In this document: positions 20,413-23,223 of the stretch, piece after piece | Position numbering within the stretch: the first letter of the stretch is position 1 | Layout: every line of letters begins with the position of its first letter | NCBI GenBank assembly: GCA_025929365.1 | Contig: JAICMG010000005.1 | Coordinates: 1 to 52,334, forward strand | Direction of reading: 5' to 3' | Source: Frankiaceae bacterium | GTDB lineage: Bacteria > Actinomycetota > Actinomycetes > JAFAQI01 | DNA length: 52,334 nt | Program-made: the position numbers and the translations under genes | The notes under the pieces: generated by a model | The model's input: the letters and a program-made list of their open reading frames with translations, nothing else | What the model was told of the DNA's origin: nothing | Databases searched by the model: none

Positions 20413-21021
20413 CTACGCGGACGCGGCGGTCGCGGGTGGCTCCTCGGTGGGGTCCTCGCCCTCCGTCACAGGTTCGTCGTGGCGTCGTACGCGGCCCGGC
20501 TGTGCCTGCTGCTTTCGGTGCGGCGCCATGACCATGATCATGTTGCGGCCGTCGAGCTTGGGTTGCGCCTCGACGTATCCCAGCTCCTCGACGTCCACCG
20601 CCAGGCGCTGCAGCAACCGCAGGCCGAGCTCGGGACGGGACTGTTCGCGTCCGCGGAACATGATCGTGATCTTGACCTTGTCCCCGGCCTTGAGGAACCG
20701 CACGACGTGACCTTTCTTGGTCTGGTAGTCATGCGGGTCGATCTTCGGCCGAAGCTTCATCTCCTTGATGATCGTGTGCGACTGGTTCCGTCGCGCCTCT
20801 CGGGCCTTCTGCGCGTTCTCGTACTTCCACTTGCCGTAGTCCATGAGCTTGCAGACCGGCGGACGCGCGTCGGGCGCGACCTCGACCAGATCGAGATCGG
20901 CCTCCTGAGCCAGCCGCAGGGCGTCTGCTATGGCGACAATGCCGACCTGCTCGCCGTTCGGACCGACCAGCCGCACCTCAGGGACGCGAATCCGGTCGTT
21001 GATGCGTGGTTCGACGCTGAT
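20413..21021 (-). CDS. infC: Translation initiation factor IF-3, ATC start codon
   Basis: [36 protein letters not shown]. Frame extends to ATC 21021, 4 nt after GGAGG. Confidence 0.95.
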
Positions 21022-21029
21022 GGGACCTC

Positions 21030-21240
21030 CACTGACGTTTCACTTCGCGAGGCCGACACGGTGAAGGCCCCGCACGACGCGCATGCGAGGCCTCTACGAC
21101 AATGGCCACACCACACCCGCCGGCAATGACGCCGACCGGCGTGGCGACCAAAGACCCGTCCGCTCCGAAGAGCAAGCAGGTGGGAGAGGCTCCACTTGCA
21201 AGTGGGCCAAGCAAGCAGGACCCACCAGTCGCAGTTAAGA
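21030..21240 (-). promoter_or_regulatory. Structured 5' leader of infC-rpmI-rplT (possible L20-responsive element)
   Basis: AAGTGGAGCCTCTCCCACCT segment, strong hairpin at 21064-21093, 14-bp palindrome at 21192-21205, position ahead of the L20 operon. Confidence 0.5.
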
Positions 21241-21262
21241 GGGTAGCAGCGCAGCGACCTAC

Positions 21263-21329
21263 CCCGGTGATCTTGACGTTTTGGGCGTCTGGAGGCTCGC
21301 CAGCCGCCAAGTACGTCAAGATCACCGGG
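21263..21329. repeat. Palindromic REP-like element, left copy
   Basis: 17-bp perfect arms CCCGGTGATCTTGACGT / ACGTCAAGATCACCGGG plus an imperfect inner stem. Confidence 0.92.
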
Positions 21330-21332
21330 CCT

Positions 21333-22235
21333 TTAGGCCGCCGGCTGGCGCAGGCGCTCCCTCACCCGTTCAATCACGCCGTCGCCTGTGCCGCGAACGT
21401 CGGACGCGCTCACGACCAGCACTGTCCAACCCAATGCCCGTACGGCGTCGCGCCTCAGGTCGTCCTCACGTCGCTGGTCCCAATGGAAGGCGCCGTCGTA
21501 CTCGATGGCGAGACGGGGTCCGAGGTAGGCGAGGTCGAGCCGCGCGACGAACACACCATCGGCGTCGCGAACCACATGCTGCGCGGTTGGGCGCGGAAGT
21601 CCGGCAGCGACCAGCAGATACCGCAAGCGAGTCTCCATTGGCGATTCGCTGAGGGGCTCGACGCTTCGAATCACCTCATCGACCCGCCGAACATCACGAA
21701 TGCCCTTGTGGGCGTTCCGATAGGCCGACAGCTCCTCGACCGTGACGAGACCGCCGCCGGTCAACGCATCCGCCACCACAAGGCGCTCGGCGGGGGCGAG
21801 CCACCGGGCGCAGTCGTAGACCGTCCGCACCGGCGTCGTCAACAGGACGCCGTTGAACAGGTCGAGATCCGTGGCATCGACCGTGAGCTCTCGTGTGTAG
21901 CAACCTGCTCGAGTCCGCAGCCGGCTCCCGGTACGACAGCCGACCCAGACGAGGTCCCACCGCTTGTCGCGCGCATCGACGCCGTAGAGCCAAGCGGCGG
22001 TCAGGCCGCAAACGAAGGCGTGCTTCCCGAGAACGAGCCGGACAGCCGCCACCCGGGTCTCGCGACTGTCCTCGATGTCCTGATGAACCCAGACGTTGCG
22101 AAACACATGTCGCCACGGACCGCCCCGGAGCGACGAGGTCGACACGCCGACCCGCGACGCGTAGGAGGTGGTGAAGGGTCCCTTGGTGAGCTGATCTGGA
22201 GTGAAGGCCCGCGGCACGTCGCGAGCATTGATCAA
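21333..22235 (-). CDS. AbiEi-like N-terminal region plus DUF559/Vsr-like PD-(D/E)XK endonuclease domain protein
   Basis: TTPVRTVYDCAR (AbiEi-like); SESPMETRLR..L...GLP.P..Q, ARLDLAY, LAIEYDG..H, D..R...GW.V (DUF559-like). Start may be GTG 22217. Confidence 0.82.
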   Translation of the reverse strand: MINARDVPRAFTPDQLTKGPFTTSYASRVGVSTSSLRGGPWRHVFRNVWVHQDIEDSRETRVAAVRLVLGKHAFVCGLTAAWLYGVDARDKRWDLVWVGCRTGSRLRTRAGCYTRELTVDATDLDLFNGVLLTTPVRTVYDCARWLAPAERLVVADALTGGGLVTVEELSAYRNAHKGIRDVRRVDEVIRSVEPLSESPMETRLRYLLVAAGLPRPTAQHVVRDADGVFVARLDLAYLGPRLAIEYDGAFHWDQRREDDLRRDAVRALGWTVLVVSASDVRGTGDGVIERVRERLRQPAA

Positions 22236-22271
22236 TCAGCGTTCCCTGTGCTGCCGTCATGCACAGGCCCC

Positions 22272-22334
22272 CGGTGATCTTGACGTTGTTGGCGGCTGGA
22301 GCGCCCGCAGACGCCAACAACGTCAAGATCACCG
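22272..22334. repeat. Palindromic REP-like element, right copy
   Basis: 23-bp perfect arms CGGTGATCTTGACGTTGTTGGCG / CGCCAACAACGTCAAGATCACCG; homologous to the reverse complement of the left copy. Confidence 0.92.
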
Positions 22335-22350
22335 AGCCAAGGTCGGCGGG

Positions 22351-23223
22351 TTATTCGACGATCTTGGAGATGGGGAGCTCCAGGATGTCCTTCGCTCCCG
22401 CGGCCTTCAGCGCCGGGATGAGTGTGTTCACCCCTTGCTTCGGGACGACCGTGCCGAGGGCGTGGCCGCCTCCCGACAGCGCCGTGACCGTCGGCGAGCT
22501 CATCGCCGGCAGCACCTCGAGCACGCCGTCGAGATCGGGCGCGTCCACGTTGAGCATCAGGTACACCGTCCCCCGCGCCCGGATCGCGCCTTGCAGCAGC
22601 AGGGCGATGTCCTCCATCGCGGCCCGCTTCTCGGGGTCCGCGTAGGAGACCGGATTGGCAATCAGCTCGGTCCGCGAGGTGAGCAGGGTCTCGATGATCC
22701 GCAGCCCGTGCGCGCGCAACGACGAGCCCGTCTCCGTCACGTCGACGATCGCGTCGACGATGTCCGGCACCTTCGCCTCGGTCGCGCCGTACGACGGCAC
22801 GATCGTCGCCTTCACGCCCGCGTCGGCGAAGAACCGCCGCGTCAGCTCGGGGTACTCCGTCGACACGCGTACGCCGTCCGGCAGCTCCGCCCCCGTCTGC
22901 GCCGGGTGGTCCGCCGGCACGGCAAGGATGATCCGCACCGGGTTCGACGTCGCCTTCGAGTACTCCAGCTCACAGACGGACTCGACGTTCGCCGACGTCT
23001 CGGTGATCCAGTCGCGCCCGGTGATGCCGAGGTCGAACAGGCCCTCCTCGACATAACGCGGAATCTCCTGCGGACGCAGGAACATCACGCGGTCGACCCG
23101 TGGGTCGGAGATCCCCGCGCGATAGTCGCGGTCGGAGCCGCGGCGCACCGCGAGGTCGGCGGCATCGAAGAGCTCGAGGGTCGCCTTCTCCAGCGAGCCC
23201 TTCGGAAGGACGAGCGACAGCAC
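22351..23223 (-). CDS. hisG: ATP phosphoribosyltransferase, long form
   Basis: LPKGSL, DLGITGRDW, STEYP, SYGATE, DAIVDVTETGSSLRAHGL, C-terminal regulatory domain. Confidence 0.95.
   Translation of the reverse strand: MLSLVLPKGSLEKATLELFDAADLAVRRGSDRDYRAGISDPRVDRVMFLRPQEIPRYVEEGLFDLGITGRDWITETSANVESVCELEYSKATSNPVRIILAVPADHPAQTGAELPDGVRVSTEYPELTRRFFADAGVKATIVPSYGATEAKVPDIVDAIVDVTETGSSLRAHGLRIIETLLTSRTELIANPVSYADPEKRAAMEDIALLLQGAIRARGTVYLMLNVDAPDLDGVLEVLPAMSSPTVTALSGGGHALGTVVPKQGVNTLIPALKAAGAKDILELPISKIVE

Follow-up and report, generated by a model that had tools for sequence, protein, structure and literature searches.

In a 52,334-nt stretch of the genome of a soil actinobacterium (Frankiaceae bacterium, assembly GCA_025929365.1, contig JAICMG010000005.1; the stretch as a whole is hereafter the window), a 1,077-bp block at positions 21262–22338, between hisG and infC, consists of two long palindromes with the same arms and, bracketed by them, a gene whose product combines an AbiEi-like DNA-binding module with a DUF559/Vsr-like endonuclease domain. 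We lean toward the view that this hairpin-gene-hairpin block is a nuclease-palindrome partnership, working in the manner of repetitive extragenic palindromic (REP) elements with their REP-associated tyrosine transposases (RAYTs) or of the SRM/Ssn system, and built on an unrelated enzyme. We demonstrate here the anatomy of the block, the association of the gene family with its repeats, compensatory change in the repeat arms, presence or absence of the block as a unit, and purifying selection on the gene. A sequence-only reading of the same DNA had already placed the gene between two same-armed hairpins; the arrangement is confirmed at 21262–21331 and 22269–22338, and all of its coordinates hold.

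The gene is an open reading frame (ORF) of 300 aa on the minus strand (21333–22235), with an annotated TTG start; translation probably begins at the GTG at 22217, which yields the 294 aa usual among relatives. The upstream palindrome, or right copy (22269–22338, no strand assigned; core 22272–22334), has arms of 27 nt matching at 96% around a 9-nt center and lies 16 nt beyond the hisG stop (22351) and 37 nt ahead of the annotated start, while the downstream palindrome, or left copy (21262–21331, no strand assigned; core 21263–21329), has arms of 30 nt matching at 87% and lies 3 nt from the nuclease gene’s stop codon and 286 nt upstream of infC; the distances of 3 and 16 bp past the two stops are those originally read. 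Folded as single-stranded DNA, the two hairpins reach −27.7 to −34.1 kcal/mol (z −9.2 to −11.1), a stability matched by 0 of 200 shuffles, with the right copy at −33 to −34.1 kcal/mol (z about −10.5 to −11) and the left at −27.7/−31.5 kcal/mol (z −9.2/−9.9). A 13-mer from the arm occurs four times exactly in the window and 10 times with up to two mismatches, against 1.69 expected and with 0 of 100 shuffles reaching 10. The two 70-nt copies are 83% alike as direct repeats and 88% complementary over 65 nt as inverted ones; whether they are inverted around the gene, as proposed, hangs on a few asymmetric bases, and global alignment ties at 0.82 in either orientation. An Rfam scan gave no credible family: the best match scored 25 bits against a gathering score of 82, and the microRNA matches that it returned were rejected as chance.

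The protein divides into the AbiEi-like module at about residues 1–190 and the endonuclease domain at about residues 195–295. Pfam places DUF559 (PF04480) at residues 234–295 with 27.4 bits (cut-off 20.6) and leaves AbiEi_1 below its cut-off (12.8 vs. 22.2), PADLOC AbiEi models match residues 17–203 (E 1.3e-9), and no NCBIfam family is matched by the protein. An AlphaFold (AF2) model built on 24 homologues has a predicted local distance difference test score of 92.4, and in Foldseek comparisons its N-terminal ~190 residues are predicted to adopt the two-domain AbiEi fold (6y8q_A, E 4.4e-5; also Rv2827c, 1zel), while its C-terminal ~100 residues are predicted to resemble I-Bth0305I (3r3p), NGO0050 (3hrl) and Vsr (1cw0, 1vsr), with template-modeling scores of 0.71–0.74, normalized to the target, for the catalytic domain against 3r3p and 3hrl. 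A profile search of PDB sequences concurs (3hrl at E 1.4e-8, the other figure for the 3r3p/3hrl pair being 0.038). The AbiEi plus DUF559/Vsr-like composition named from the letters alone is thereby borne out by four kinds of search, and its remark that the unit lacks a transposase agrees with them: Pfam finds no transposase domain, and Pfam, PADLOC and the fold search return AbiEi and DUF559 only. Some of the counts given here and below include unpublished genomes, namely locus L025 (genome G026) among 30 loci of related genomes and five genomes (G097, G175, G031, G149 and G047) among 29 loci of a phylum-wide sample; L025 also supplies a row of the 24-row homologue alignment (A1), and the conservation, AF2 model, fold, PDB-profile, phylum-census and cluster-representative results rest partly on it, while the family search in the present genome, the paralogue arms, a gene test in genome G011 and the flank scores also rest partly on the A1 translations.

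Across those 24 sequences, with identity down to 27%, there is no variation at E197, S198, E245 or D247, and conservation at D234 and G248 is 90% or more; we take these conserved acidic core residues (ES..E, D, ExDG) to be the catalytic residues of the nuclease. Against orthologues at the same site, the ratio of nonsynonymous to synonymous substitution rates (dN/dS) is 0.09–0.32. Because of the conserved acidic residues, the AbiEi and Vsr-like folds and this dN/dS range, the protein is, as far as sequence and modeling predict, a working DNA-binding module joined to a nuclease of predicted activity. Its gene has a dS two to three times that of hisG, which could reflect older alleles or weaker codon bias, and branches two to three times longer than those of the neighboring genes.

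The association between gene and palindrome holds among the paralogues of the present genome (G000; 3.27-Mb assembly), where a family hidden Markov model (HMM) built from the 24 translations identifies 14 genes, 12 of them full-length and two comprising the AbiEi part only. We scored each gene by the best ungapped similarity between its two flanks and took at least 20 as a bracket. Eleven of the 12 full-length paralogues reach that score, the twelfth scoring 16.5 with a degenerate upstream copy, against 7 of 1,564 other long ORFs (10 of 1,567 controls before removal of three that were themselves family members); control scores have a median of 10 and a 99th percentile of 16.5. For the two AbiEi genes that lack a nuclease domain the scores are 8 and 9, under the control median. 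The suspected tie of the palindromes to this gene family is thus a property of the genome as a whole. The arm sequence differs paralogue by paralogue, the closest pair of paralogues is 77% identical, and of the 36 strongest hairpins in the 3.27 Mb eight adjoin family genes and seven more resemble those flanking copies. Elsewhere in the same genome, two 100% identical copies of the hairpin, 586 nt apart, surround a lipoprotein-like ORF of ~170 aa unrelated to the nuclease family (locus L062, C13:18002-18656), and, as further strong repeats, a GTCAGG...CCGGCTGTAGCCGG hairpin or dyad family (C29:16711-16784, C186:2062-2101) and ATGTCACAT arrays (C164:10387-10461, C34:379-457, C82:35670-35712) are present, with no partner gene identified in G000 for either.

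Beyond the present genome, 26 of 31 related genomes carry the protein, mostly in several copies each; a search with the single protein as query gave seven close loci. Same-armed hairpins stand on both sides at 24 of 30 loci, with protein identity of 28–100%, and the other six comprise two one-sided loci and four without hairpins, including one at a contig edge and one with a split gene. Arms differ between clades. In the close clade the upstream hairpin ends 31–53 nt ahead of the start, and the downstream one lies 1–16 nt past the stop or overlaps the last codons. At three loci of one clade (L006, L007 and L027) the ORF runs into the downstream hairpin, so that the palindrome encodes the last 10–12 residues (e.g., a ...DLDEKGALRAS tail). 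Global alignment of the 21 scorable flank pairs finds 10 direct, three inverted and eight ties; the inverted orientation is therefore no feature of the family, whatever its standing at the hisG locus. Bracketing extends to both named records inspected: in Tsukamurella tyrosinosolvens it surrounds the protein annotated as DUF559, and Arthrobacter sp. StoSoilB13 has it as well. When the phylum was sampled evenly, the family turned up in 54 of 151 genomes, with up to 14 copies per genome, and 12 of 29 loci tested reach a flank score of at least 20; the bracket is not universal in the family. With E 1e-10 as its limit, a profile search returned 28,829 cluster representatives, and the names given to relatives in databases are only “DUF559,” “AbiEi antitoxin,” “vsr endonuclease” and “hypothetical.” All four public runs compared with the locus consist of contigs, which break inside the hairpins and show no joint across the block; public soil-metagenome contigs likewise end mid-hairpin, and many database homologues sit on contigs of 1–1.7 kb. 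Around the gene, short-read assemblies seem to be interrupted by these palindromes.

The palindromes also occur without the gene, as a REP-like layout would have it. Hairpins with TGATCTTGACG arms number 10 in G000 and 0–35 in relatives (the genus and three neighboring genera), and a reversed-pattern control finds none in any genome. In G000 most solo copies have a stop codon 2–23 nt away, frequently in places where two genes converge; they are up to 100% identical to one another, and several are palindromic to the very center. In relatives, two of these solo sites hold variously a hairpin of another family after the same stop, a pair around an unrelated small ORF, other DNA, or nothing. One intergenic site is an insertion hot spot in the genus: it carries a single hairpin in G000 (C75:2288) and, at the orthologous position in G009 (locus L067, C190), a direct pair of GAGGTCGAC-type hairpins around an unrelated ORF of ~130 aa.

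Some comparisons favor co-occurrence of a hairpin family with its gene. True 55–56-nt hairpins with GAGGTCGAC arms, separated by eye from coding matches, are seen only in the five genomes of the genus where they flank a gene, which in one of the five has an internal stop; genome G007 has a frameshifted cognate with variant arms. In G011, the spacing of 1,126 nt between two GTGATCATGGCG hairpins led to the prediction that a family gene lay there, and one was found (HMM E 1.7e-37). In G009, which has no hairpin of the locus family genome-wide, the gene at hisG-infC is decayed and unflanked. Within the hairpins themselves, 15 copies from two sister families align in register with 83% of cells pairing, against 76% when shuffled (0 of 500 reach it), and three stem pairs switch fully between the sister families by compensatory change. 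The assembly of genome G006, the carrier of 35 hairpins, contains two different hisG genes (contigs C54 and C69; 84% and 87% identical to that of G000); it may mix two strains, which bears on those 35 hairpins and on its two cassettes.

An intact cassette occupies the hisG-infC site in seven other genomes of the genus, and an eighth copy, that of G009, has no hairpins, has lost its N terminus and carries mutations in the conserved acidic motifs; wherever relatives keep the gene here they keep the repeats, the only repeat-less copy being this decayed one. The comparison of relatives for an empty site, suggested beforehand, yields a clean one in G010. G003 and G011 have at this position a solo hairpin of a different family, the same as flanks a paralogue elsewhere in the same genome. 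In a tree test of vertical descent the cassette clade is not rejected on the housekeeping block (approximately unbiased, AU, test p 0.45), in trees that are poorly resolved. The data are compatible with mostly vertical inheritance of this gene copy within the genus, and the earlier picture of an insert, if taken as a recent one, does not survive the seven further intact copies and the eighth decayed one. Replacement of the cassette at the hisG site was also considered and has no support, the same AU result giving equally none against vertical descent.

In its layout the block most resembles REP/RAYT systems. According to Nunvar 2010 (PMC2817692), RAYT genes are flanked by cognate repeats, co-evolve with them, evolve faster than their neighbors and correlate in their presence with repeat abundance, and classical REPs usually exceed 100 per genome; REP/REPIN sequences with their RAYT genes are also the subject of Bertels and Rainey 2011 (PMC3116915). 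Shared with those systems are the cognate hairpins on both sides of the gene and the same repeats dispersed extragenically near gene ends, a repeat family for each paralogue with one gene copy per family per genome, the faster evolution of the gene relative to its neighbors, and the tracking of repeat abundance by gene presence, so that the parallel originally drawn to a RAYT-like layout on a different nuclease holds. The differences are that the enzyme is there an HUH tyrosine transposase, related to IS200/IS605, and here an AbiEi-like module with a Vsr/DUF559 hydrolytic nuclease; that the flanking copies are here more often direct than inverted; that repeat copies number tens rather than hundreds (10 exact-armed in G000); and that the whole block is here polymorphic for presence and absence, in hosts of the Actinomycetota.

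On the partnership reading that we favor, the protein would recognize the palindromes of its own family in duplex, cruciform or single-stranded hairpin form and would cut within or next to them; the host, by repair or replication at these breaks, would copy or maintain the palindromes and occasionally move the whole block. Palindrome binding, cleavage and spread caused by the protein are what we infer here. The gene would, on this account, stay put for long periods and decay once its repeats are gone. A bolder form of the proposal, which we hold only tentatively, is that the block represents a new class of DNA, mobile or self-propagating, in which an AbiEi-guided nuclease of Vsr fold cuts a long palindrome and drives its spread, and sometimes its own. 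If so, and with the same reservation, there might be a dozen orthogonal nuclease-palindrome pairs in one genome and tens of thousands of variants across the Actinomycetota.

Several observations weigh against the partnership. A PD-(D/E)XK nuclease is not known to form a covalent intermediate and therefore, unlike an HUH transposase, would perform no strand transfer by itself. Genomes G003, G004 and G010 (78–87% complete) hold six to eight hairpins of the family, and a cognate gene turned up in none of the three. The bracket is rarer outside the class, at 6 of 22 loci in the phylum sample vs. 6 of 7 within it, and copy number is low (0–35). Co-variation between the gene and its flanks is expected from linkage alone, and gene conversion could, without the protein, make the solo copies of a genome alike. 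Finally, a target-site duplication is unreadable at the two junction pairs, which come from diverged genomes.

The main rival is a self-contained cassette, a selfish hairpin-gene-hairpin unit that would move by homing or by recombination at its hairpins, possibly via a circle with one hairpin, the solo copies then being attachment sites or leftovers of recombination between flanking copies, not products of the protein. We regard this as unlikely, though several observations favor it. The block is a unit of presence and absence at three sites, a pattern that, combined with cleavage of the gene-less allele, would mark a free-standing homing endonuclease gene, and it goes with both hairpins: cassettes in G006 and G008 face clean empty sites in G000, where just 6 and 34 bases are left unaligned and hairpins are absent. 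Because identity is 69–73% among the G006 protein, the G008 protein and that of the G007 copy at the hisG site, a single clade of cassettes occupies three chromosomal sites in three species. All five flank pairs that are at least 85% alike are direct repeats, which is what integration or a long duplication would be expected to leave, unrelated small ORFs too are found between direct hairpin pairs that are identical or nearly so, and the predicted catalytic fold is shared with I-Bth0305I, an EDxHD Vsr-like homing endonuclease, as it is with the DUF559 protein NGO0050, although the present gene has no intron or intein context and its product has a different N-terminal DNA-binding module. What tells against the cassette is that no pair of paralogues in G000 exceeds 77% identity, which gives no sign of recent cassette copying, while solo hairpins reach 100%; that no relative has a family cassette at the two solo sites examined; that the three genomes without the cassette lack a solo of its own family at the hisG site; that the copies at that site are compatible with vertical descent; and that the family is all but missing from plasmids, with 2 of 72,556 records, and gave no match in the phage collection. 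The lack of a known transposase and of near-identical copies, the closest paralogues being 77% identical, sets the block apart from insertion sequences and miniature inverted-repeat transposable elements as well.

A nuclease serving its host in the manner of Ssn, cutting the hairpin motif in single-stranded DNA, such as incoming or replicating DNA, and thereby modulating recombination, DNA uptake or repair, with the repeats as self-marks spread by other means, is an alternative that we consider quite improbable. For ssnA, 42% of homologues are reported to lie between two copies of the hairpin motif, which is also scattered over the genome (PMC11893778, Chenal 2025), and this is the layout found here; the SRM/NTS-Ssn system and ours have in common a hydrolytic nuclease gene flanked by its own dispersed hairpin motif and many nuclease-motif pairs of differing specificity. 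Purifying selection and long residence at one site would also suit a domesticated function. The enzyme folds, however, are unrelated: Ssn is described there as a single-domain GIY-YIG single-strand nuclease with a motif of ~28 nt, whereas the window protein has two modules, no GIY-YIG domain by Pfam or fold search, and palindromes of 57–75 nt. Twelve orthogonal pairs with few targets each in a 3.3-Mb genome are, moreover, hard to read as one host function. The host organisms are uncultured.

A regulatory or structural role, in which the palindromes would be terminators, insulators or operators of an AbiEi autorepressor and the nuclease would be irrelevant to their distribution, seems to us very unlikely. 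AbiEi antitoxins are reported to autoregulate by binding to inverted repeats (PMC7319586), and hairpins after stop codons could end transcripts; a promoter and terminator scan, though, came back empty, with no terminator-like site and no T-tract. An operator would leave unexplained the copy behind the gene and the solos at the 3′ ends of unrelated genes, the different families at one site in different species need insertion or turnover, and the conserved nuclease residues are under selection. Also in favor of regulation is a small palindrome, CCTGTGC-N9-GCACAGG (22245–22267, minus strand), a candidate for an operator or promoter element in the gap that separates the start codon from the upstream hairpin. 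It represents at this locus a motif, CTGTGGAY/CTGTGGACAG, often a 10-bp palindrome, whose position is conserved in relatives: upstream sequences read by eye show it at ~27 of 29 loci (L002–L030), ~40–50 nt before the start codon and between upstream hairpin and start, even where the hairpins are unrelated, and its reverse form is present in distant paralogues of G000. The motif 9-mer shows no genome-wide enrichment in G000 (56 found vs. ~86 expected). A second conserved block, CAYSCT, follows ~30 nt after the CTGTGGACAG-like motif and 6–7 nt ahead of the GTG start, and the two may be operator and promoter of a leaderless transcript.

That the gene is an orphan antitoxin or defense gene of AbiE type is hardly credible, for although the PADLOC match and the label “type IV toxin-antitoxin system AbiEi family antitoxin” that some database sources give its relatives point that way, and the first 190 residues are predicted to share the two-domain fold of AbiE antitoxins (6y8q; Rv2827c, 1zel), the gene has a fused C-terminal nuclease and a palindrome bracket, plain AbiEi genes are unbracketed, no AbiEii lies beside it, and it sits between housekeeping genes, outside any defense island. 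The absence of an AbiEii partner had been read correctly, the neighbors being hisG and infC, while the accompanying notion of a defense module finds no support. The sole above-threshold AbiEii match in G000 (C51:11069-11755) stands beside a plain AbiEi; together they form a classical AbiEi/AbiEii toxin-antitoxin pair (C51:11069-12614) whose AbiEi has neither a nuclease domain nor flanking palindromes.

The neighboring genes, hisG (22351–23223) and infC (20413–20976), are likewise on the minus strand. The part of their spacer at 21000–21260 contains a stretch conserved across the genus around GCAAGYGGAG...CTCCCACC and has a weak Rfam match to Scr1601 (21 bits vs. a gathering score of 100); one RNA-library contig from public runs spans only 20950–21221, on the infC leader side. 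This conserved spacer is probably the infC leader.

In the open-access full-text literature we found no description of an AbiEi-DUF559/Vsr gene paired with palindromes, and the element is apparently both widespread in actinobacteria and undescribed. If the partnership that we favor is real, it gives a function to a very large family now annotated as DUF559, AbiEi, vsr or hypothetical, and it accounts for a class of actinobacterial intergenic palindromes that also break metagenome assemblies. It would likewise add, beside RAYT and Ssn, a third and mechanistically different repeat-associated enzyme, and provide numerous pairings of a nuclease with a long recognition site, legible directly in genome sequences. 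Should the more tentative self-propagating reading prove true, the family would amount to a natural library of long-site nucleases, specific for structure or sequence.

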